64,000 nt of DNA from an uncultured Gammaproteobacteria bacterium. Lineage in GTDB: Bacteria > Patescibacteriota > Microgenomatia > Levybacterales > UBA12049. Each line of letters starts with the position of its first letter. The first letter of the stretch is position 1. The notes beneath the pieces are model-generated. The model saw nothing but the letters and a program-made list of their open reading frames with translations. It was not told where the DNA came from and searched no databases. Both the position numbers and the translations under genes were made by a program. The DNA is taken from assembly GCA_964610465.1 (NCBI GenBank), contig CAZSWA010000002.1:13423-77422 (forward strand), read 5' to 3'. Below, piece by piece: positions 846 to 59,450 of the stretch.

Positions 846-1817
846 ATGGAGAATTTAAAATATCTTTCTGTAATTTTAGCGTTATTTACCTTACTGCTTA
901 CTGCAGATCAGGTAGTTCCAGCGTATGCTACAAATAATAATAACGATGATGCCAAGGCTGAACAAAAAGTTGACATGCCTCAAATAGACTTCTCAAAGTT
1001 TGATAAAGAAGTAAAAGGAGCTCAAGACCTAAAAGACAACAATGTCCATATCGACGTAAATCTTGTTACCAAAGGAAATGACGATAAAAACCAAAATAAC
1101 GGTAAAGATAAAAATCCAGGTGGTTGTGACCAAAATGGTTCAACAGGTGATAAAAACGGTGCACCATGCAATCCTGGGAAAAATAATGCTTCACCAGAAG
1201 GATGCTTACATGGAGAACCTGATTGTACAAAAACACCTACACCTAAGCCAACTGATTGTCCACCGAAAGCAACTCCAACACCAACTTATAAACCAAAACC
1301 AACTGAAAAACCAACAATAACACCAAAACCGACTTCTACTCCAAAGCCGACTGATTGCCCGCCAAAGGTCACACCAACTCCTACTCATAAGCCAACGGAA
1401 ACTCCTACACCAAAACCAACTCATACGCCAACACCAACTGTAACTCCAACTGCTACACCAACAACATTGCCAACTGTTACACCAACTCCTACACAAGAAG
1501 TGGAAACCCAAACACCTATCGTAATAAATAACAACAATACCAATAATAATAATGTCACGATAAACAACGACTTTACCAATACCAACGAAAACACCAATAC
1601 AAATAACAACAATAATTCAGTTGAGGAAACTCCTACACAAACTCCAACTCCAACTCCACAAGGAAAGGTTTTGGGGGTATCAACTGAAAATCTTCCAAAC
1701 ACAGGTAATTTCTTACCAAATCTTGGAAAACTCTTCCAAGCATGGGCAGCATTTGCATTAGGATTAATAGCAATAACTCGTATACGAAAAAACAAAACAT
1801 TGGCAGAGGCGAGATAA
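846..1817 (+). CDS. LPXTG-anchored surface protein with Thr/Pro-rich tandem repeats and an Asn-rich low-complexity segment
   Basis: N-terminal signal peptide. Repeats of the form PKPTDCPPK(A/V)TPTPT(Y/H)KP. C-terminal LPNTG followed by a hydrophobic stretch and a basic tail (RIRKNK), which is a classic sortase sorting signal. Confidence 0.75.
   Translation: MENLKYLSVILALFTLLLTADQVVPAYATNNNNDDAKAEQKVDMPQIDFSKFDKEVKGAQDLKDNNVHIDVNLVTKGNDDKNQNNGKDKNPGGCDQNGSTGDKNGAPCNPGKNNASPEGCLHGEPDCTKTPTPKPTDCPPKATPTPTYKPKPTEKPTITPKPTSTPKPTDCPPKVTPTPTHKPTETPTPKPTHTPTPTVTPTATPTTLPTVTPTPTQEVETQTPIVINNNNTNNNNVTINNDFTNTNENTNTNNNNNSVEETPTQTPTPTPQGKVLGVSTENLPNTGNFLPNLGKLFQAWAAFALGLIAITRIRKNKTLAEAR
1240..1500 (+). 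repeat. Imperfect in-frame tandem nucleotide repeats encoding the PT-rich linker of the LPXTG protein
   Basis: A repeated ccaactgattg(t/c)cc(a/g)cc(g/a)aa(a/g)g..acaccaac unit is seen directly. Spurious ORFs arise on both strands here. Confidence 0.5.
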
Positions 1818-1821
1818 TCTT

Positions 1822-2340
1822 ATGAAAACTCAACTTGCCCTTGTCTTTGGAAGCATCTTACTTCTTTCTTCTGGAATTCTTCTTCAATTTTCTGATACTT
1901 TTATCGATGCACCAAAAATTCCAGTTACCGTACAAGCACAGGTAACTAATTCATCTCCTGAAGAAGTTAAAATTCCATCAGTCAATATAGACCTATCCCT
2001 TGAACCAGGCGGATTTTATAATGGCAAATGGGTTTTATCGGAAACTACAGGAAATTTTATGCCGGTTAATGCGAATATTGCAGCTGGAGACGGATTTGTA
2101 GTCTATGCACACAAACGGGTAAATCTATTTATAAGTCTTAAGAATGTCAAAAAAGGCGATAAAATTATTGTTATGGATAATAAAAATAAAACATATACCT
2201 ATGATGTTTATAATCTGGAAGATATACGTGGAAATGAAGTAGGTAAAGTTGAATCAAATGAAAAAAATACCATTGTCCTTTTTACTTGTGATGGAGTGTT
2301 CGATGAAAAAAGACTTGTGGTAAGAGCAAAGAGAATCTAA
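1822..2340 (+). CDS. Sortase (class A/E-like transpeptidase)
   Basis: N-terminal membrane anchor. Conserved His (VYAHK), catalytic TLxTC-type motif (VLFTCDG) and C-terminal Arg (VVRAKR). It lies immediately downstream of its LPNTG substrate. Confidence 0.8.
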   Translation: MKTQLALVFGSILLLSSGILLQFSDTFIDAPKIPVTVQAQVTNSSPEEVKIPSVNIDLSLEPGGFYNGKWVLSETTGNFMPVNANIAAGDGFVVYAHKRVNLFISLKNVKKGDKIIVMDNKNKTYTYDVYNLEDIRGNEVGKVESNEKNTIVLFTCDGVFDEKRLVVRAKRI

Positions 2341-2359
2341 TAACCTGTATTTTTCCCAT

Positions 2360-2388
2360 TGACTCATTCATTTATTTCTGTTAAATTT
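2360..2388 (+). promoter_or_regulatory. Candidate sigma70-type promoter (TTGACT-17-TTAAAT) for the pyr operon leader
   Basis: Hexamers read from the sequence. The predicted start site falls at the beginning of the hairpin at 2393. Confidence 0.3.
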
Positions 2389-2392
2389 AAAT

Positions 2393-2429
2393 CCCAGAGC
2401 TCTATCCACTTATCCAGCTCTGTTTTTTT
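2393..2429 (+). terminator. Stem-loop (CAGAGCT..AGCTCTG) plus T7 run abutting the pyrB ATG. Either an intrinsic terminator of the sortase unit or an attenuator of the pyr operon.
   Basis: A 7-bp inverted repeat with a 14-nt loop is followed by TTTTTTT, and the pyrB ATG begins at the next base. The loop UCCCAGAGCUCUAUCC loosely resembles PyrR-type binding loops. Confidence 0.4.
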
Positions 2430-3401
2430 ATGAGAGACTTAGGGTATACACCTATAGGCAATTCATTTAAAGGAAAAGATATCCTCTCAATTACTCAATT
2501 TGATGCAAAAAGCATCCACAAACTTTTCTCCTTTGTCCCCAAAATGGCAGATATTGCCAAGCATGCAAAAGCTTCTCATATTTTAGAAGGAAATATTGTA
2601 TCTATTCTTTTTTTTGAACCATCAAGCAGAACATTTAATTCATTTGCAGCAAGTGTCAAGCAGCTTGGCGGACAAACACTTGAACAGCAAAATCCTATGC
2701 AGTTTTCATCATTTGCCAAAGGTGAATCCCTTGAGGATGCAATAAAAGTATTTGAAGCCTACTGTGACGCAATAATACTCCGCCATCCGGAAGTAGGAAC
2801 AGCCAAGAAAGCAGCAGACGCTGCTTTTTTTGTACCTGTTATCAACGCAGGTGATGGGATAGGCGAGCATCCAACACAAGCATTACTTGATATGTATACT
2901 ATTTATGAAAAATTTGGCAGACTGGACAATCTCACAGGAGTACTTGCAGGTGATATGCTCAATGGCCGAACAGTACACTCATTAATTCAAGGATTATCAC
3001 AGTTTAGAAACAACACTCTCTATCTTTTGTCTCCTGAATCGCTAAAGCTTAAAGAAGATGACTTGCTTGAATTTCAAAACAGGGGAGTCAAACTTATTGA
3101 AATTGACAGTGAAAATGATATTCCAAAAGATAGTCATTTCTGGTATTGGACGAGAGTGCAAAAAGAACGTTTTTCAGACCCAAAAGAATATGAAAAAGTA
3201 AAACACGCATTTATTGTTACCCCAAAACTTCTTGAAGAATATGCGTCAAAACATATGATTCTTATGCATCCTTTGCCAAGAGTTGGAGAAATAAGTACAG
3301 CTGTTGATAGTGATACTCGTTCTGTATATTTGACAACTCAAATCAGAAACGGAATGTATGTACGAATGGCACTCCTGGGCTTGGTGCTAGGCAAACTGTA
3401 A
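2430..3401 (+). CDS. pyrB: Aspartate carbamoyltransferase catalytic subunit
   Basis: SSRTFNSF (STRTR-region variant), GEHPTQALLD (HPxQ) and HPLPR motifs. First gene of the pyr cluster. Confidence 0.85.
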   Translation: MRDLGYTPIGNSFKGKDILSITQFDAKSIHKLFSFVPKMADIAKHAKASHILEGNIVSILFFEPSSRTFNSFAASVKQLGGQTLEQQNPMQFSSFAKGESLEDAIKVFEAYCDAIILRHPEVGTAKKAADAAFFVPVINAGDGIGEHPTQALLDMYTIYEKFGRLDNLTGVLAGDMLNGRTVHSLIQGLSQFRNNTLYLLSPESLKLKEDDLLEFQNRGVKLIEIDSENDIPKDSHFWYWTRVQKERFSDPKEYEKVKHAFIVTPKLLEEYASKHMILMHPLPRVGEISTAVDSDTRSVYLTTQIRNGMYVRMALLGLVLGKL

Positions 3402-3429
3402 ATCTTTTAAGAAAGAAGTTTTTAATAAT

Positions 3430-4524
3430 ATGGTGGGAAAACTTATTCTGCAAGACGGAACCTCAATTGAAGGACAAAGCTTTGGCGCAACGATAGCTAG
3501 CGCAGGTGAAGCAGTATTTTCAACCGGTATGGTCGGATACCCGGAAAGTCTCACTGATCCATCTTATAAAGGGCAATTGCTTATCCTAACTTATCCATTA
3601 GTTGGAAATTATGGAGTCCCAAATAAAAAACTATGGGAATCAAATAATCTTATGGTTTCAGGTCTCATAGTTAATAACTATATTGATACTCCTTCACATT
3701 TTCTAAGTGCAAGAACTCTTGCTCAGTGGTTTCAAAACGAAGGTATTCCGCTTATACAGGTAGCAGACACACGAATGCTAACCCAAAAGATACGGGATGA
3801 AGGCAACAAACTTGCAAAAATAGTTTTTGATAAAGATATTACGTATTATGACCCAAATCAGGAAAATCTTGTCGCTCAAGTATCAACGAAAGAAATTATT
3901 TTCAATCCTGCACCTGCGTCCAACGGAAAAACAAAAACGATTTTACTTATTGATTGCGGAGCGAAGAAAAATATTGAACGGGAGCTTCTTAAACGAAATG
4001 TAAATGTAATAACAGTTCCATGGGATTTTAATCCTTTTTCATCAAAAGGAGAAAATGTGCTTAAAGAACTTACTGGCAAAGAACACTTTGATGGCATACT
4101 TGTATCCAATGGTCCAGGCGATCCAAAATTTGCACAAAAAACAATTCAAACAATTAAAAAAGCACTAGATCTCAAAATTCCTGTTCTTGGAATTTGTCTT
4201 GGACATCAACTTTTAAGCCTTGCAGCAGGCGGAGATACGAAAAAACTAAAATACGGACACAGAAGCCAAAATCAACCATGTATTATGGAAGGAAGCAGCA
4301 GATGTTTTATTACGACGCAAAATCATGGATTTGCCGTTTTTGAAATTCCGGATGGGTTTAAGACCTGGTTTACCAATGCCAATGATGGATCAAATGAAGG
4401 CGTAATTCATACCAAATTGCCTTTTATGTCAGTACAATTTCATCCTGAAGCAACACCTGGCCCTGTTGATGCAGATTGGATATTTGATTATTTCTTGAAA
4501 CGAATTGGAAATCAGGAATTATGA
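3430..4524 (+). CDS. carA: Carbamoyl-phosphate synthase small (glutaminase) subunit
   Basis: CPSase small N-domain followed by a class I glutamine amidotransferase domain with GICLGHQLL (catalytic Cys) and FHPE. Confidence 0.9.
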   Translation: MVGKLILQDGTSIEGQSFGATIASAGEAVFSTGMVGYPESLTDPSYKGQLLILTYPLVGNYGVPNKKLWESNNLMVSGLIVNNYIDTPSHFLSARTLAQWFQNEGIPLIQVADTRMLTQKIRDEGNKLAKIVFDKDITYYDPNQENLVAQVSTKEIIFNPAPASNGKTKTILLIDCGAKKNIERELLKRNVNVITVPWDFNPFSSKGENVLKELTGKEHFDGILVSNGPGDPKFAQKTIQTIKKALDLKIPVLGICLGHQLLSLAAGGDTKKLKYGHRSQNQPCIMEGSSRCFITTQNHGFAVFEIPDGFKTWFTNANDGSNEGVIHTKLPFMSVQFHPEATPGPVDADWIFDYFLKRIGNQEL

Positions 4525-4560
4525 ATCAAACCATGATTCCTTATTCATGATTCAAAAGCT

Positions 4561-7500
4561 ATGAAACAAATGAAAAACGAAAAAAAGTTTCAAAAGGTAT
4601 TAGTTCTTGGTTCCGGTGCACTCAAAATAGGGGAGGCAGGAGAGTTTGATTATTCTGGCTCTCAGGCAATAAAAGCAATGAAAGAAGAGGGGATACAAAC
4701 AGTATTGGTCAATCCCAATATCGCAACTATACAAACTTCAAAATTTCTTGCTGACTCAGTGTATTTTCTGCCGGTCAATGAATTTTTTGTTACAAAAGTG
4801 ATAGAAAAGGAAAAACCTGATGGCATTCTCTTATCTTTTGGCGGACAGACAGCACTAAATTGCGGTATTCAACTGTACAAAAAGAAAATTCTTGAGAGAA
4901 ATGGCATCGAAATTTTGGGAACTCCCATGTCTGCAATTCTTTTGTCAGAAGACAGAAAAAAATTTGCCAATCATCTGCACAAACTTAATGTCTCAACACC
5001 AATCAGTAAAACTGCATATAAAACAAGAGAGGCTTTAGAAATTGCACAGGGATTAGGCTATCCGGTTATGGTACGTGCAGGATTTGCGCTTGGAGGACAG
5101 GGATCTGGTATTGCACAAAATGAGGAGCATCTAAAACAAATTGCTGACCATGCGTTTTCATTTGTACCCCAAATTCTGGTTGAAAAATATCTGCATCACT
5201 ATAAAGAAGTTGAATATGAAGTAGTCAGAGATAAATATGACAACTGTATTACAGTCTGCAATATGGAGAATATGGACCCGCTTGGAATTCATACTGGTGA
5301 ATCAATTGTTATTGCTCCAAGCCAAACGCTTACCAATTTTGAATATCATACCCTTCGCAATATTTCTATCAAAATTGTAAAAAGTCTTGGGATAGTAGGC
5401 GAGTGCAATGTACAGTTTGCGTTGAATCCGCGTCCACAAAATGATACTTCAATTGAGTATTACGTAATAGAACTGAATGCACGGCTTTCAAGAAGTTCAG
5501 CACTTGCTAGTAAAGCAACCGGATATCCTTTGGCATATGTTGCAGCCAAGTTGGCTCTTGGAAAGAATCTTACCCAATTGCAAAATAAAGTCACCAAAGC
5601 AACCCAATTTTGTTTTGAGCCTGCACTCGATTATGTCACTGTCAAAATTCCAAGATGGGATATTGAAAAATTCAAAGGTGCAGAAGAAACTATCGGCAGC
5701 AGCATGAAATCAGTTGGAGAAGTAATGGGAATCGGACGAACTTTTGAAGAAGCATATCAGAAGGCGCTTCGAATGCTGGATTTAAATTTTGAAGGAGCAG
5801 TTAATGAAAAAGTATTTCAAAAGAATGGAGAAAAAATCACCCATCTTCTTGGAAGACCAACTCCCAAACGTATGTTTGCAATAGCCAAGGCATTGATGGA
5901 AGGAGTAAGTGTTGAAGAAATCTATGATATCACTGGCATTGATCCGTGGTTTATCTATAGAATCAAAAATATTGTAGAAGAAGAAAAGAAATTAACCATG
6001 TCATCTCGAAAAGTTCTGCAAAGCAGAACGACGAGAGATCCCCTACACCCAAGTAGCATGCATGAGATTTCTCCCCACACTCGGCGGGGTCGAAATGACA
6101 CAATAACAAAATCCCATCTTCTTCACCTTAAGCAGCTTGGTTTTTCTGACAAAAGAATAGGATTTCTCTTAGGAGTATCTGAGCTTGAAATACGAAGTTT
6201 GAGGAAAAAATATGAAGTTATCCCTTCCATATTTCAAATTGATACGTTGGCTGGAGAATTTCCTGCTCAAACTAATTATCTCTACCTCACTTATAATGGT
6301 GCTCATAATGATGTGAAACCTACCAATCAGCAAGGAGTCATTGTCTTAGGTTCTGGACCATATAGAATTGGTTCATCGGTTGAGTTTGACTGGACAAGTG
6401 TCAACACAGTTATGTCCCTAAAAAAACATGGGAAAAAATCAATCATTATCAATTGCAACCCCGAAACTGTTTCAACTGATTATGATATTTCTGATAGATT
6501 GTATTTTGAAGAATTGACCTTTGAACGTATTGCTGATGTGTATGACTTTGAAAATCCCTATGGAGTTATTATTTCAGTTGGTGGACAAACACCAAACAAC
6601 AGAGCAATGCCATTAAAAAAATATGGATGCAATATACTAGGAACTGACCCTTATGATATTGATAGAGCAGAAGATAGGAATAAATTTTCAGCACTTCTTG
6701 ATACACTTGGTATTAAGCAGCCTTCCTGGAATAAGTTTAATAATATTGATGAAGCGCTCAAATTTGCTGAGAAAGTCGGCTTTCCTGTTCTTATTCGTCC
6801 ATCCTATGTATTATCTGGAAGTAACATGAAAATTTGTCACAATCCTGCAGAACTTATGCAATATCTTGAGCAAGTCTCAACAATTTCTCAGGAGTATCCT
6901 ATCACTGTCTCAAAGTTTATACGTGATGCCAAAGAAATCGAGATAGATGGTGTTTCTGAAAAAGGAATTGTGAAAGCAATTGTTATCTCAGAACATATCG
7001 AAAATGCAGGTGTTCATTCAGGAGACGCGTCAATTCTGCTTCCACCGCAAAAACTCTATATTGCAACACTTCGGAAATTAAGAATCATTGCTGCTGATGT
7101 GGCAGAAGCGCTCAACATCACAGGACCATTTAATATCCAGTGTCTTGCCAAAGACAATCAGGTTTCAGTTATTGAAATCAATCTTCGCGCCTCCCGCACA
7201 TTACCGTTTATTTCGAAAGTAACAGGAGTGAATTTTATTGAGATGGCAACAGATGCGTTTTTCCATAAAAATATAAAACCTTTATCAATCAATTTCCTTG
7301 ACTACAATTATGTTGCAGCAAAAGTCGCACAGTTCTCCTTTGCTCGTTTAACTGGAGCAGACCCTGTGCTTGATGTTGAAATGGCATCAACAGGAGAAGT
7401 TGCCTGCTTTGGCGAAGATGCGGAAGAAGCATTTCTCAAAGCAGAATTAAGTGTGGGAGGCCATATACCACAAAAAGGAGTCTTTGTAAGTCTTGGCGGA

Positions 7501-7950
7501 GATATAAATAAAGTAAAATTCCTGGAAAGCGCAAGAAGATTACAAATACTTGGGCTCCCTATATATGCAACTGAAAAAACTGCCAAATATCTTAAAAAAA
7601 ATGGAATTCAAGTAAAACGCTTGTATAAATTGCATGAACAAAAAACTCCAAACATTTTACAGTACTTTCAGAAAGGCAAAGTTGACCTTGCAATTAATAT
7701 TACAGATAAAGATATAAAAAAAGAAGTGAATGATGACTATGCGATTCGTAGAACTGCAGTGGATTTAAATATCCCGCTTTTTACCAATCCGCAAAAAGCA
7801 GCACTTTTTATCAAAGCACTGTCTGAAAAAAATCTGCTACATCTTCCTATCAAGTCATGGGATCAATATCTCAATAATGAAAAAGCATCTAAAAAAATAA
7901 AAAAAGCTCCACAGATTGCAGAATTAATCACAACAAAAACCGATCTATAA
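4561..7950 (+). CDS. carB: Carbamoyl-phosphate synthase large subunit. It carries a ~28-aa GC-rich in-frame insertion in the oligomerisation region.
   Basis: Two ATP-grasp halves, an LGFSD oligomerisation motif and a C-terminal MGS-like domain across 1129 aa. The insertion at nt 6027-6110 is listed separately. Confidence 0.95.
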   Translation: MKQMKNEKKFQKVLVLGSGALKIGEAGEFDYSGSQAIKAMKEEGIQTVLVNPNIATIQTSKFLADSVYFLPVNEFFVTKVIEKEKPDGILLSFGGQTALNCGIQLYKKKILERNGIEILGTPMSAILLSEDRKKFANHLHKLNVSTPISKTAYKTREALEIAQGLGYPVMVRAGFALGGQGSGIAQNEEHLKQIADHAFSFVPQILVEKYLHHYKEVEYEVVRDKYDNCITVCNMENMDPLGIHTGESIVIAPSQTLTNFEYHTLRNISIKIVKSLGIVGECNVQFALNPRPQNDTSIEYYVIELNARLSRSSALASKATGYPLAYVAAKLALGKNLTQLQNKVTKATQFCFEPALDYVTVKIPRWDIEKFKGAEETIGSSMKSVGEVMGIGRTFEEAYQKALRMLDLNFEGAVNEKVFQKNGEKITHLLGRPTPKRMFAIAKALMEGVSVEEIYDITGIDPWFIYRIKNIVEEEKKLTMSSRKVLQSRTTRDPLHPSSMHEISPHTRRGRNDTITKSHLLHLKQLGFSDKRIGFLLGVSELEIRSLRKKYEVIPSIFQIDTLAGEFPAQTNYLYLTYNGAHNDVKPTNQQGVIVLGSGPYRIGSSVEFDWTSVNTVMSLKKHGKKSIIINCNPETVSTDYDISDRLYFEELTFERIADVYDFENPYGVIISVGGQTPNNRAMPLKKYGCNILGTDPYDIDRAEDRNKFSALLDTLGIKQPSWNKFNNIDEALKFAEKVGFPVLIRPSYVLSGSNMKICHNPAELMQYLEQVSTISQEYPITVSKFIRDAKEIEIDGVSEKGIVKAIVISEHIENAGVHSGDASILLPPQKLYIATLRKLRIIAADVAEALNITGPFNIQCLAKDNQVSVIEINLRASRTLPFISKVTGVNFIEMATDAFFHKNIKPLSINFLDYNYVAAKVAQFSFARLTGADPVLDVEMASTGEVACFGEDAEEAFLKAELSVGGHIPQKGVFVSLGGDINKVKFLESARRLQILGLPIYATEKTAKYLKKNGIQVKRLYKLHEQKTPNILQYFQKGKVDLAINITDKDIKKEVNDDYAIRRTAVDLNIPLFTNPQKAALFIKALSEKNLLHLPIKSWDQYLNNEKASKKIKKAPQIAELITTKTDL
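6027..6110 (+). repeat. GC-rich palindromic miniature element inserted in-frame in carB (family copy A)
   Basis: The ~50% GC patch lies in a ~33% GC gene and contains CCCC..GGGG and TCGAAATGACACAATAAC. It shares GA(G/A)(A/T)TTTCTCCC and a TCGA..ACAATAA tail with the pepP element. Confidence 0.45.
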
Positions 7951-26517: not shown

Positions 26518-26600
26518 GGGCGAGTGGCGGAATGGTATACGCGGTAGTCTCAAAAACTACTAGTCGCAAGGCTGTGTGGGTTCGACTCCCTCCTCGCCCA
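26518..26600 (+). tRNA. tRNA-Leu (anticodon CAA), type II with a long variable arm
   Basis: Acceptor GGGCGAG/CTCGCCC plus discriminator A. Anticodon stem GTAGT/ACTAC with loop CTCAAAA. Long variable arm. GGTTCGACTCC T-loop. No encoded CCA. Confidence 0.8.
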
Positions 26601-33477: not shown

Positions 33478-34644
33478 ATGAATTTGCTTGAGAGAGTAAA
33501 AAAATTATTAGCTGAAGAGAAACTTGATGCAATTCTCCTATCATCAGTTCCCAATATTCTCTATCTCACTGGGTTTTCTCACTTTTCAAAAGATGAACGG
33601 GAAGCTTTTTTGTTAATTACTAAAAAGAATCAGTATATTTTGACAGATGGACGCTACTCGCATGCAGTGAGAACTCATATCAAAGATTTTCAGCTTGAAG
33701 AAATCTCATCCCATACTCCATTGAAAAAATTACTTTCAAAAATAGTCAAAAAAGAGAAACTTGCAAATGTTGGTATTGAAGAAACCAATCTTACAGTGGC
33801 GGAATACAAAAAATTAAAACCGCTTTTTAAAAAAGTACACCATATCACTTTGCATTCGCTTCGCGAAATAAAATCTCCACAGGAAATTACTTTGATACAA
33901 AATGCTTGTACTATCGGAGATAAAGCGTTTTCATTTATACTGACAAAACTCAAACCTGGAATTACAGAAAAAGCAATTGCCTTCGAACTTGAGTGGTTCA
34001 TCAAAAAAGAAGGTGCAGATTTTTCTTTCCCGGCAATAGTTGCATTTGCAGAAAATGCAGCCGTCCCTCATCACAAAACCGGCACTAAAAAACTTGAAGA
34101 CAATATGCCGGTGCTATTGGACTTTGGAGTCAAGTATAATGAGTATTGTTCTGATATGACAAGAACAGTATTTTTTTGCAAAGCGACAAAGAAACAAAAA
34201 ACTATCTATCACACAGTTCTTGCCGCACAACAGAAAGCAATATACTATATTGAACAACAACTAAAGCTATATTCTTCGAGCGACCACGCTCAGCGTGGGA
34301 ATCGAGAAGTTTCTCCCTATACTAAGCACGACAGTTCTCGACTTCGCTCAAACAATAATCTAGAAGCTTCTGAAGTTGATAAAGTAGCAAGAGACTATAT
34401 TATTTTCCAAAACTTCCCTTCTATTCCTCACTCTCTTGGTCATGGCATTGGTCTTGAAGTCCATGAAACACCTCACCTCTCACCAAAATCAAAAGATGTT
34501 TTAAAAAATGGCATGGTTTTCTCTCTAGAGCCAGGAATTTATGTACCGGATTTCATGGGAGTTCGGATTGAAGATTTATTTACAATACAGGAAGGCAAAC
34601 TTCTACACCTTACAAAATCCCCTAAGAATCTTATTGAATTATAA
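33478..34644 (+). CDS. pepP: Xaa-Pro aminopeptidase (M24B). It carries a ~28-aa GC-rich in-frame insertion.
   Basis: Creatinase N-domain. M24 metal ligands include HGIGLEVHE and D/D/E positions. The insertion at nt 34275-34358 is listed separately. Confidence 0.85.
   Translation: MNLLERVKKLLAEEKLDAILLSSVPNILYLTGFSHFSKDEREAFLLITKKNQYILTDGRYSHAVRTHIKDFQLEEISSHTPLKKLLSKIVKKEKLANVGIEETNLTVAEYKKLKPLFKKVHHITLHSLREIKSPQEITLIQNACTIGDKAFSFILTKLKPGITEKAIAFELEWFIKKEGADFSFPAIVAFAENAAVPHHKTGTKKLEDNMPVLLDFGVKYNEYCSDMTRTVFFCKATKKQKTIYHTVLAAQQKAIYYIEQQLKLYSSSDHAQRGNREVSPYTKHDSSRLRSNNNLEASEVDKVARDYIIFQNFPSIPHSLGHGIGLEVHETPHLSPKSKDVLKNGMVFSLEPGIYVPDFMGVRIEDLFTIQEGKLLHLTKSPKNLIEL
34275..34358 (+). repeat. GC-rich palindromic miniature element inserted in-frame in pepP (family copy B)
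   Basis: GAGCG-ACCA-CGCTC palindrome, GAAGTTTCTCCCT and a TCGACTTCGCTCAAACAATAATC tail. These features are shared with the carB element. Confidence 0.45.
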
Positions 34645-40496: not shown

Positions 40497-40590
40497 AAAA
40501 AAAATCCCTCTTGTCAGAGGGTTAGGTATACTATTTTCTTTACAGAATACCTATCCCCTCCTTATGAAGGGAAAAGTAAAGAAAAATGCA
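40497..40590 (-). promoter_or_regulatory. Leader repeat copy 2: same architecture (CCCTCT..AGAGGG plus U8) ~10 nt before the start codon of the 79-aa gene
   Basis: Directly seen. On the + strand it ends at the ATG of a spurious N-terminal extension of rpmE. Confidence 0.45.
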
Positions 40591-40704
40591 AAAGAAGAGT
40601 TATGTATCATATAGTTATGATAGTACAAAAGATTCCGTTTTTCAAGGTTCAGTTCCATCTAGTCTTTACTTGCTACCCAATTTTGAGGGTAAAACCCTGG
40701 CCTC

Positions 40705-40733
40705 CAGCTTGTATATCCTGCTAGAATACGCTA
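40705..40733 (+). promoter_or_regulatory. Promoter TTGTAT-17-TATAAT for rpmE. It predicts a near-leaderless mRNA.
   Basis: The -10 ends 11 nt before the ATG at 40745. Confidence 0.4.
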
Positions 40734-40744
40734 TAATAGTTTTT

Positions 40745-41044
40745 ATGAAAGCAACTATCCATCCTAAATATTACGAAAACGCTGAGGTAATTTGTGTCTG
40801 TGGAAATAGATTTACCACAGGTTCAACAAGCCCAGTTATTCATGTGGAGCTTTGCAATAAATGCCATCCGTTTTATACCGGCAAGCAGGCTTTTATTGAT
40901 TCACGCTCAAAGATCAAGAATTTCGAAGCCAAACGTCAAGCTGCCACTCAATATCAAACCACGGTAGCCAAGAAAAAAGCTGAGGAAAAGAAAAAGACAG
41001 AAGGTCCAAAGACTCTTCGCGAAATGCTTATGGGGCTTAAATAG
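40745..41044 (+). CDS. rpmE: Ribosomal protein L31 (Zn-ribbon type) with a Lys-rich C-terminal extension
   Basis: MKATIHPKYY..CVCGN..CNKCHPFYTGKQ. The start is at the internal ATG of ORF 40586..41044. Confidence 0.85.
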   Translation: MKATIHPKYYENAEVICVCGNRFTTGSTSPVIHVELCNKCHPFYTGKQAFIDSRSKIKNFEAKRQAATQYQTTVAKKKAEEKKKTEGPKTLREMLMGLK

Positions 41045-41049
41045 CTCTA

Positions 41050-41118
41050 CTGTCATTCTGAGCCGCTTTGGCGAACGAAGAATCCCATGAGATCCTTCGC
41101 TATCGCTCAGGATGACCC
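41050..41118 (+). repeat. GC-rich structured element in the rpmE-prfA spacer (family copy C)
   Basis: A 12-bp long-range stem GTCATTCTGAGC/GCTCAGGATGAC encloses CCCATGAGATCCTTCGC. It shares CATGAGAT..TC with the carB copy. Confidence 0.4.
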
Positions 41119-41128
41119 TAAACCTCTT

Positions 41129-42019
41129 ATGTCAGATTATAGACTCATTCAACTCCAGGAACTAGACCAAAAAATACAAGAAACCAAATCACTTCTTGAA
41201 GATCCTTCTATGGCTGAATTGGCACATCAAGAAATAGCAGATCTTGAAAACCAAAAGAAAGTAATTGAAGAAAGTCTTGAGCGTTCTACGAGTAATAATG
41301 AACAGAGTCTTGATGAAAGAAATGTGCTTTTGGAAGTAAAAGGAGCTGCGGGTGGAGATGAGGCAAAATTGTGGGCTGAAGAACTGATTCGTATGTACTT
41401 GCGCTATGCTCAAAGAAAAGGATTCAATGTCGAACTACTTGATGAAACTGTTATTAAAATAAAAGGAAGAAATGCATTTGGAAATTTTAAGTATGAAGCT
41501 GGCGTGCATCGTGTTCAAAGAATTCCTAAGACTGAGAAAAAAGGACGTATCCATACCTCAACTGCAACTGTGTCGATATTACCGGAGCTTGAAGATATTG
41601 ATATGCATATTAATCCGGAAGATATAGATTTTGAAGCATTTAGAAGCGGCGGACATGGCGGCCAAAATGTCAATAAAGTTTCAACAGCAGTAAGGATAAA
41701 ACATATCCCAACAGGAATTGTAGTTACCTCACAGGCTGAGCGTTCACAAATACAGAATCGTGAGATAGCAATGGAACTTCTTAGAGCAAAACTTTGGGAA
41801 ATGCAAATTGAAAAACAAAATAAGGAAATCTCGTCCCTTAAAGCAACTCAGGTGGGACGCGGAATGCGGGCTGAGAAAATCAAAACATATAATTTCCCGC
41901 AGGATAGACTCACAGATCACAGAATTAATAAATCCTGGAAAAATTTGCCGCTTATACTTGATGGAGATATACCTGAAGAAAAACCAACAGAAGAACAAGC
42001 TATAGGAGTGCAAGAGTAA
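41129..42019 (+). CDS. prfA: Peptide chain release factor 1
   Basis: GGQ motif (SGGHGGQNVNKV) and an RF1-type tripeptide region IPKTEKKGRIHTS (PKT in place of PAT). The start is at the internal ATG (MSDYRLIQ). Confidence 0.9.
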   Translation: MSDYRLIQLQELDQKIQETKSLLEDPSMAELAHQEIADLENQKKVIEESLERSTSNNEQSLDERNVLLEVKGAAGGDEAKLWAEELIRMYLRYAQRKGFNVELLDETVIKIKGRNAFGNFKYEAGVHRVQRIPKTEKKGRIHTSTATVSILPELEDIDMHINPEDIDFEAFRSGGHGGQNVNKVSTAVRIKHIPTGIVVTSQAERSQIQNREIAMELLRAKLWEMQIEKQNKEISSLKATQVGRGMRAEKIKTYNFPQDRLTDHRINKSWKNLPLILDGDIPEEKPTEEQAIGVQE

Positions 42020-53140: not shown

Positions 53141-53230
53141 CCTCCTTTAAAATCTCTTGATTTTAAAGGATCCTCACGGAGGCCTGCGGCCTGAGAACCG
53201 CAGTTCGAAGGACCCTTCCTCGATAGTTTT
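53141..53230 (-). ncRNA. GC-rich structured leader/ncRNA candidate. An 11-bp hairpin partly sequesters the SD of the small His-rich protein, and a cluster of short GC hairpins lies upstream.
   Basis: CCTTTAAAATC-aaga-GATTTTAAAGG overlaps AAAGGAGG. Hairpins CCTC-CGT-GAGG, CTGCGG..CCGCAG and GAAGG-GTC-CTTC. The ~60% GC patch sits in an AT-rich spacer. Confidence 0.3.
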
Positions 53231-53364
53231 CTTAAATTCTAATATTAAGTACTATTACAACATCCGAGACTTGCATTGCTCTTTTCACCACAAAAATAAT
53301 TGGTCTTTATCTATGATACAGTATTTTAAGATGGGCTTGTCAAGAGGAAAAATAGATGAGTAAA

Positions 53365-58914: not shown

Positions 58915-59355
58915 AATGTAAGCCTTTTTCCCACGAAAAAACCCCTGGAACTTCAAATGCGCTTATACAAGCATTGCGGTGACGCCATTGTCACCGCCGT
59001 GTACAAATCGCATCCCTGCGAAATTCCAAGGGAGCACGCCATTGTGCCCCCAATAATCATGATGGGGTTAATCCCACCAGTTCCTTCGATAGTCTTTCGA
59101 TGGACCCGTAGGTCCTGTATGAAGAATCCACGGCATTCTGTCTCGCCAATCTGGCTGCCTCCATGCATGTTTTATGCAGAAAAAGAATCCTTTCGCTACT
59201 AGACTAACTGCCATGAAGACTACAGGTACAACTGCCCCTTGCATGCCGCGTTCCTTTCGTTTCTGGCGGGACGGTTCGCAGCACCTTACTGCAAATCCAT
59301 CTTTGCCAGACCAAGTCTCGATTGAAGCGGGATTTGGTCTGGCAAGCCAGAAAAG
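58915..59355. ncRNA. GC-rich (~50%) ~440-nt island with no coherent ORF and many nested inverted repeats. Candidate structured RNA gene; class unresolved, strand unknown.
   Basis: Four overlapping 60-100 aa ORFs in different frames. Stems GCCAGACCAA..TTGGTCTGGC, GCCGTG..CACGGC and others. Shares TTCCT(T/C)CGATAGT(C/T)TTTC with the 53141-53230 element. Confidence 0.35.
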
Positions 59356-59450
59356 GTTTATATTGGGGTACACATGTAAAAGTGCTTATCTAAACAATAC
59401 CAGAAAACACAGCAAAAGTCAATATTATAGGTCTTTATTTTAACCTTAGA

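Follow-up and report, generated by a model that had tools for sequence, protein, structure and literature searches.

The carB locus and the inserted element

We analysed a 64-kb stretch of bacterial DNA (the window) in which carB, the gene for the large subunit of carbamoyl-phosphate synthase, is interrupted in frame by a GC-rich segment of 102 nt built from two hairpin arms (table 1). The encoded CarB is 100% identical to the orthologue P0001 and 67–79% identical to 119 orthologues from Levybacteria/Microgenomates-like genomes; since its closest named relatives are those of Levybacteria/Microgenomates, the host is a bacterium of the Candidate Phyla Radiation (CPR). An initial annotation, made from the sequence alone, had proposed a GC-rich palindromic mini-element at 6027–6110. 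The DNA and peptide that it quoted do lie in carB, the 1129-aa frame is intact across 5999–6100, a stop-free length divisible by three, and the GC content peaks locally at 0.50–0.55 around 6000–6100, against 0.371 for carB and 35.8% (0.358) for the window. The boundaries had to be redrawn, because an 11-nt terminal inverted repeat with one mismatch, TGTCATCTCGA (5999–6009) / TCGAAATGACA (6090–6100), and a paired GTCATYNYGA motif bound the unit at 5999–6100; the earlier limits missed the whole left arm and the TGTCATCTCGA / TCGAAATGACA repeat, and the CAATAAC that follows 6100, previously counted within the element, is flanking DNA. GTCATYNYGA occurs just four times in 64 kb, forming two inverted pairs, one in carB and one in an intergenic palindrome (41052–41116). 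Conceptual translation of 5999–6100 gives MSSRKVLQSRTTRDPLHPSSMHEISPHTRRGRND(T). The element folds much more strongly than its shuffled versions (RNA z = -3.7, DNA z = -2.4), and carB flanks of equal length have no excess folding (DNA z = -0.1 and +1.2).

Table 1. Location of the repeat elements, their parts and their host genes in the window.
Feature	Positions	Strand	Description and basis
carB open reading frame (ORF)	4561–7950	+	Carbamoyl-phosphate synthase large subunit, 1129 aa; host of the element; ORF list and translation
Whole carB element	5999–6100	+	Head-to-head heterodimer (tags outside) of two arms resembling repetitive extragenic palindromic (REP) hairpins, 102 nt = 34 codons; terminal inverted repeat, arm pattern, fold, absence from nearest orthologue (P0002/L006)
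Left arm, TCTC type	5999–6042	+	Tag TGTC 5999–6002; tail CCC 6040–6042
Spacer between carB arms	6043–6063	+	21 nt, CTACACCCAAGTAGCATGCAT
Right arm, TTTC type	6064–6100	-	Minus-strand reading TGTCA-TTTC-GA...GA-GAAA-T-CTC; minus-strand tag TGTC at 6100–6097
M24 peptidase ORF	33478–34644	+	Peptidase_M24 and Creatinase_N, 388 aa ('pepP' of the initial annotation); host of the second insert; Pfam
Type A element	34270–34357	+	TATT-tagged heterodimer, in frame in the M24 peptidase; fold z = -3.4; arm boxes
Intergenic GTCA-type element	41051–41117	+	Head-to-head heterodimer, TTCT arm 41051–41086 and TCCT arm 41089–41117; arm pattern; RNA fold z = -4.6

Read on the strand that carries the tag, the arms follow a general pattern, (T/C)GTC-A-XXXX-GA-(variable inner hairpin)-GA-X'X'X'X'-T-CTC, and we call elements built from them GTCA-type. 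In the left arm, A-TCTC (6003–6007) pairs with GAGA-T (6035–6039), the GA/GA doublets stand at 6008–6009 and 6033–6034, and the inner hairpin is formed by GTTCTGC (6013–6019) and GCAGAAC (6023–6029). The right arm, which on the plus strand reads GAG-A-TTTC-TC-CCCACACTCGGCGGGG-TC-GAAA-T-GAC-A, has as its inner hairpin the CCCC (6073–6076) / GGGG (6086–6089) inverted repeat that had been pointed out initially. The inner segments of the two arms measure 23 and 16 nt, with hairpin loops of 3 nt (AAA) and 9 nt (ACACTCGGC), respectively. A single long cruciform formed by both termini was also considered and dropped in favour of two separately folding arms, complementarity being kept within arms and not between termini. 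The window has four arms with complementary 4-mers, where 300 dinucleotide shuffles gave 0.14 on average and at most 2; these four make up two dimers with tags outside, the one in carB and an intergenic one, which starts ~7 nt past the stop of ORF 40586–41044 and overlaps the annotated start of ORF 41087–42019. A BLASTN comparison of the carB region with the window returned no second copy.

The segment occupies a linker that is short in most CarB proteins. It is short (...EEKKLxK-xK-xLTKExLLxLKQLGFSD) in about 100 of the 120 orthologues aligned with MAFFT, and the linker of the window CarB counts 53 residues against a median of 22; the nearest relative (P0002, 79% identical outside the linker) has a short, insert-free version. 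Alignment to solved structures places ~30 extra residues at a point where human CPS1 passes directly from residue 880 to 881, and the alignment with Escherichia coli CarB, relative to which additional residues had been claimed from the outset, picks up again at residue 488; the insert thus lies in the CarB oligomerisation domain. In an AlphaFold2 model built with 45 orthologues (mean predicted local distance difference test score, pLDDT, 76.9), residues 486–513 have pLDDT <50 and no secondary structure, between confident helices at 462–490 and 517–525, so that the insert is predicted to form a disordered loop. All insert-bearing CarBs have insert-free nearest relatives (e.g. P0104/P0086 at 88% and P0119/P0101 at 87%), and one four-member clade alone has a common insert; from this we count at least eight independent colonisations of the same linker. 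The carB segment bears out the initial view of a palindromic, selfish-type mini-element inserted in frame. Another occupant of this linker, in P0082 (L005, 11480–11629), starts ATGTCACGAAAAAG, to be compared with ATGTCATCTCGAAAAG in the window, and contains the palindrome CCTTCTCCCTTTAAGGGAGAAGG (peptide SPSPFKGEGQDEG); it falls outside the arm pattern and may be a decayed element or a repeat of another type.

Distribution of the arms and the type A elements

The boxes of the right half, GAGATTTCTC...TCGAAATGAC, were searched for in public collections of viral contigs and species-representative genomes. The degenerate pair GAGATYTCTC...TCGARATGAC gave 28 matches in viral contigs and at least 120 stretches in species-representative genomes, with more than 10 phyla among the matches listed; these include Clostridia, Bacteroidota, Chloroflexota, Planctomycetota, Verrucomicrobia, Omnitrophica, Actinomycetota, Proteobacteria, Spirochaetes, Bdellovibrionota and, within the CPR, Uhrbacteria. 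The idea of an undescribed family proper to this lineage has therefore to be given up, all the more as the class was described in 2013 (see below). With one Y/R position freed in each box, 116 copies carry T/A, 42 C/G and a single one a mixed pair; covariation is thus kept in 158 of 159, from which it follows that the two boxes base-pair. The box pair of the carB right arm (TTTC/GAAA) recurs in 116 of the 159 modules of other phyla. A further 48 arms have other 4-mers (TTCC, TCCC, TTCT, TCCT and others) that are perfectly complementary, where about one would be expected by chance.

Across 252 arms, the tag is TGTC in 195 (77%) and CGTC in 46 (18%), and the tail CTC is present in 201 (80%). Arms occur singly as well as in dimers; the latter are mostly head-to-head (55, against 16 head-to-tail and 15 tail-to-tail), with heterodimers (32) exceeding homodimers (23). 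The spacers of head-to-head dimers elsewhere measure 3–115 nt, many arms of the family have loops of 3–5 nt, and typical arms with an inner segment of 7–8 nt form a stem of nine positions, tandem G.A included. Heterodimers of the TCTC + TTTC combination found in carB were recovered 14 times, with identical boxes and differing inner hairpins and spacers, in Levybacteria relatives (L002, and carA of L005) and in five other phyla. Searches of the element, the whole window and multi-copy loci against Rfam, at gathering and permissive thresholds, retrieved no family for the arms. In some Clostridia and Flavivirga (L031, L030/L051, L082) the arm forms the 3' part of a longer repeat, with ~60–200 nt conserved upstream, and the L082 unit is arranged in tandem at ~235-nt spacing; such units may be composite repeats that have this arm in common.

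The initial annotation had also reported a second insertion, in pepP, sharing motifs with that of carB. There is indeed a palindromic, in-frame insert in the M24 peptidase, where the alignment to PDB 3q6d leaves query residues 259–294 unmatched (~33 extra aa, encoded by ~34270–34357, translation YSSSDHAQRGNREVSPYTKHDSSRLRSNN), but it is no copy of the carB element. The motif GAGATTTCTCCCC is absent there even with two mismatches allowed, and the supposed tail motif recurs in one place alone (26663), by chance. The insert is a TATT-tagged heterodimer with different boxes, hereafter type A: its left arm (34270–34309) reads TATT-CTTC-GA...GA-GAAG and is followed by a spacer (34310–34333) and a right arm (34334–34357), GTTC-TC...TC-AAAC-AATA, in which one position has decayed. 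A peptide E-I/V-S-P-H/Y-T common to the carB and M24 inserts was considered as a sign of a shared copy and set aside, as it reflects similar box logic (GAGA + TTTCTC).

The general type A pattern, TATT-CTTC-GA-(hairpin)-GA-GAAG - spacer - GTTC-TC-(hairpin)-TC-GAAC-AATA, follows the two-arm logic of the GTCA-type, with neither its GTC tag nor its CTC tail. Its termini seem to hold a conserved mismatch because each of them pairs with the inner box of its own arm; in the right arm, two variable bases are Watson–Crick complementary in 37 of 38 copies, with four compensatory switches. A metagenome scan found at least 120 stretches with the pattern, and no match was obtained in viral contigs. Long ORFs contain 21 of the 71 complete copies, and 14 of these 21 are read in the sense frame TAT-TCT-TCG, which yields a hydrophilic peptide YSSS...SNN; stop codons are absent about equally often from each of the six frames (29–49 of 71), so this preference for one frame points to selection at the level of the translated peptide. 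Housekeeping enzymes serve as hosts (TsaD, CysRS, DHFR, HMG-CoA reductase, TrmD, TatD, RecF and another M24 peptidase), and the CarB-linker inserts of L001, L003 and L004 are likewise type A, always YSSS...SNN(K/N). One metagenomic M24 peptidase (L172) has a type A element at the same position as in the window (NYSSSDPEF...SSRLRSNN), either inherited or marking a hotspot. No description of the TATT-tagged variant was found in the literature.

Class, mobilisation and alternative explanations

The arms resemble a published group of repeats. Di Nocera, De Gregorio and Rocco (2013; BMC Genomics 14:522, PMC3733652) defined a superfamily of CGTC-tagged REPs, with TGTC or CCTC tags in many repeats, stems of 8–9 bp that open with two complementary A/T positions, loops of 4–5 nt (with exceptions noted) and an unpaired 3-nt tail of consensus CCA at the untagged end. 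These REPs are found mostly as head-to-head dimers with outward tags, in many cases heterodimers, and their spacers span 20–100 bp; they have no dedicated transposase, occur in five phyla, and code for 20–30 aa where the dimers are intragenic (PMC3733652). The superfamily includes Neisseria dRS3 and also Rickettsia palindromic elements (RPE), namely RPE-4 and RPE-6, so that the analogy drawn initially with such elements was apt (PMC3733652). The carB element agrees in the unpaired TGTC tag on both arms, in the first stem pairs, A-T and T-A in either arm (A-TCTC/GAGA-T, A-TTTC/GAAA-T), and in being a head-to-head heterodimer (TCTC + TTTC) with a 21-nt spacer, tags pointing outwards as in the other GTCA-type dimer of the window. 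Like those repeats, its family has some copies inside ORFs, is present in several phyla, and appears to lack a dedicated flanking transposase, a weak likeness that is taken up below. A C-rich tail of 3 nt is common to both, CCC (left) and CTC (right) in carB, with CTC as the consensus of the family instead of the published CCA. It departs from the description in its loops of 3 and 9 nt and in its host, CPR bacteria standing outside the groups listed in the paper. It is a known kind of element in a new host lineage.

Similarities to other systems are more partial. RPE-1 elements are longer, at ~100–150 bp, and restricted to Rickettsia. The carB element is instead a dimer of short tagged hairpins with pan-bacterial relatives, and what it shares with RPE-1 and its relatives (Ogata et al., cited in PMC3733652), palindromic and tolerated in frame in housekeeping genes, is a likeness in behaviour alone. 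With the REP doublets known as REPINs, or bacterial interspersed mosaic elements (BIMEs), the carB element has in common two inverted REP hairpins, a short spacer, a non-autonomous nature, the lack of target duplication and, at the base of every hairpin, four conserved unpaired nucleotides. Such doublets are reportedly mobilised by REP-associated tyrosine transposases (RAYT, or TnpA-REP), in work attributed to Bertels and Rainey in 2011 and to Ton-Hoang, Messing and others. The tag is TGTC/CGTC, however, and not GTAG; no RAYT flanked by arms was found at 143 loci, the source genome outside the window not having been searched for one; and REPIN families are usually genus-specific, whereas here identical boxes extend across phyla. 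In our literature search, no paper tying REPs or palindromic in-frame elements to the CPR was found, and a search with sequence words gave primer coincidences only.

We consider it very probable that the carB segment is a non-autonomous, REP-type head-to-head heterodimer of the TGTC/CGTC-tagged class, inserted without target-site duplication into A-rich linker DNA and tolerated as a translated, disordered loop. The insertion point would be A-rich DNA coding for the short inter-helix linker of the CarB oligomerisation domain; with a length that is a multiple of three and no stop, the insert would be read as a hydrophilic, disordered loop of 34 residues, and the element may persist because the loop tolerates it. 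Mobilisation would depend on a trans-acting enzyme of the HUH/Y1 type that recognises hairpins in single-stranded DNA, much as RAYT acts on GTAG-tagged REPs. By this analogy, such recognition is the most likely mode: the arms are conserved as hairpins whose unpaired tags do not vary and whose tag strand has a tandem G.A, they are both single and dimeric, and they leave no duplications. The dimers end sharply, YGTCA...TGACR; in 68 of 72, no direct repeat of 2 nt or more adjoins the ends, and no conserved target motif was found among the 72.

An alternative in which the hairpins are kept for the regulation of carB mRNA (pausing, stability or processing), or in which the loop benefits CarB, seems unlikely to us. 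Strong predicted folding would suit it, as would the perfect complementarity of both arms and their GC-rich composition in a genome of 36% GC, and in the published view many REPs act as RNA (PMC3733652). The same loop is, moreover, occupied in several lineages; yet its occupants are unrelated (type A, GTCA-type and others) and most orthologues are empty, the same arms lie in unrelated genes and in intergenic DNA, no Rfam family was recovered, and the loop is predicted to be disordered. Mild side effects of the insert on expression would be compatible with all of these objections.

Descent from an insertion sequence, as a classical miniature inverted-repeat transposable element (MITE) whose termini TGTCATCTCGA / TCGAAATGACA served a DDE transposase, is highly improbable. 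Bacterial MITEs such as Correia and Nezha show target-site duplications and rely on terminal inverted repeats. The carB element is similar to them in being small and dispersed with inverted termini, and MITEs too are sometimes in frame in genes; both its terminal repeat of 11 nt and the scattering of copies on both strands would fit. The want of duplications and of a target motif nevertheless argues against DDE-type movement, and complementarity runs within arms and not between termini, heterodimers outnumber homodimers, single arms exist, and no transposase recurs nearby.

An ordinary lineage-specific expansion of the linker, with palindromes arising by coincidence, is effectively refuted: linker length does vary among orthologues, but the two-arm architecture, exact 10-nt boxes common to hundreds of copies in other phyla, the excess of window arms over shuffled sequence and the insert-free nearest relatives all oppose it. 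CPR bacteria often have introns in their rRNA and tRNA genes, and those of tRNA genes are reportedly the subject of a 2025 preprint; that the segment is an intervening sequence, akin to a mini-intron or intein and removed from mRNA or protein to leave a mature CarB without it, is nonetheless barely conceivable, since every self-splicing intron or intein is much larger than 102 nt, the frame is kept without stops, and in the sister type A family one hydrophilic frame accounts for 14 of the 21 intragenic copies.

Several points weigh against the REP-type interpretation of the carB segment. The element appears largely to fit the definition of the CGTC/TGTC superfamily, the assignment following its written criteria and not the CGTC-1 to -4 consensus sequences, and the supplementary text of PMC3733652 holds no DNA strings that match the arms. 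The carB stem is composite (a 5-bp helix, tandem G.A and a variable inner hairpin), with inner segments of 23 and 16 nt in place of an 8–9 bp stem and a 4–5 nt loop. Clustering of the ORFs within 2.5 kb of arms at the 143 loci gave no recurrent family and no transposase, in a sample that could miss a single-copy gene; and neither here nor in Di Nocera et al. (2013; PMC3733652) has a mobilising enzyme been identified for this class of arms. That the insert is translated within CarB is suggested by the kept frame. In pairs of filled and empty genes the flanks are too diverged for mapping junctions at the nucleotide level, the nearest orthologue being 79% identical. Finally, the tally of two GTCA-type dimers and one type A element covers 64 kb of the source genome.

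The interpretation of the carB segment as a REP-type dimer accounts for a 34-residue insertion in an essential enzyme without any new function, and extends both the tagged REP-type repeats and the in-frame habit of RPE-like elements to the CPR. The strict covariation of 4 bp within invariant boxes, across more than 10 phyla, offers in turn a precise search model for the mobilising enzyme of the class.

Repeat load in CPR genes and other features of the window

Among the arms that could be tested in CPR-type contigs, taken from a set not chosen for its GTCA arms, 16 of 37 (43%) are within long ORFs, against 27 of 205 (13%) in other phyla, the latter an upper bound because GC-rich genomes yield spurious long ORFs. 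Intragenic GTCA-type arms have no strong frame bias. Among Levybacteria relatives, carA, carB and pyrC hold several dimers; an 11.8-kb contig (L003) carries four of them at 862–7204, in carA, carB and the dihydroorotase gene pyrC, three being type A and one GTCA-type. Further in-frame dimers or arms lie in pyrimidine-biosynthesis genes (L001 5857–5948; L002 9492–9533 and 10864–10897; L005 8746–8837 and 12854–12889). Whether in Levybacteria-like CPR bacteria REP-type hairpin dimers, type A included, survive mainly inside housekeeping proteins, as a major source of protein insertions in the CPR, is in our estimate evenly balanced. 'Lineage-specific insertions' in CPR CarA, CarB, PyrC, M24 peptidase, TsaD, CysRS, DHFR, PriA, RecF and other proteins may be repeat-derived, and call for caution in annotation.

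Two other ORFs hold several such segments. A PriA-like ORF (L208) contains a number of repeat-derived inserts, among them YSSSKPRSS...RSNN and arms of the HSERSEES/EIPRRYAPRDD type, and a FemAB-like ORF (L221) has three type A-derived segments.

Elsewhere in the window, ~390 nt at 58940–59331 reach 51–54% GC, partly over a 101-aa ORF with a GTG start (59068–59373, minus strand), and have no Rfam match, permissive thresholds included. The sole Rfam match of the window at gathering score is a tRNA (26518–26600, plus strand); a Phe_leader-like match below threshold (40497–40611, minus strand; E = 0.039, 35 bits against a 55-bit cut-off) is probably due to chance. An intergenic GC-rich island at 53143–53237, which the arm pattern does not match, has a perfect 12-nt inverted repeat, TCCTTTAAAATC/GATTTTAAAGGA (53143–53170), and a GGCCTGCGGCC palindrome. 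Within ORF 846–1817, the GC-rich stretch at 1321–1406 encodes a Pro/Thr-rich repeat (..PKPTSTPKPTDCPPKVTPTPTHKPTETP..) that resembles a low-complexity linker and not a palindromic element.

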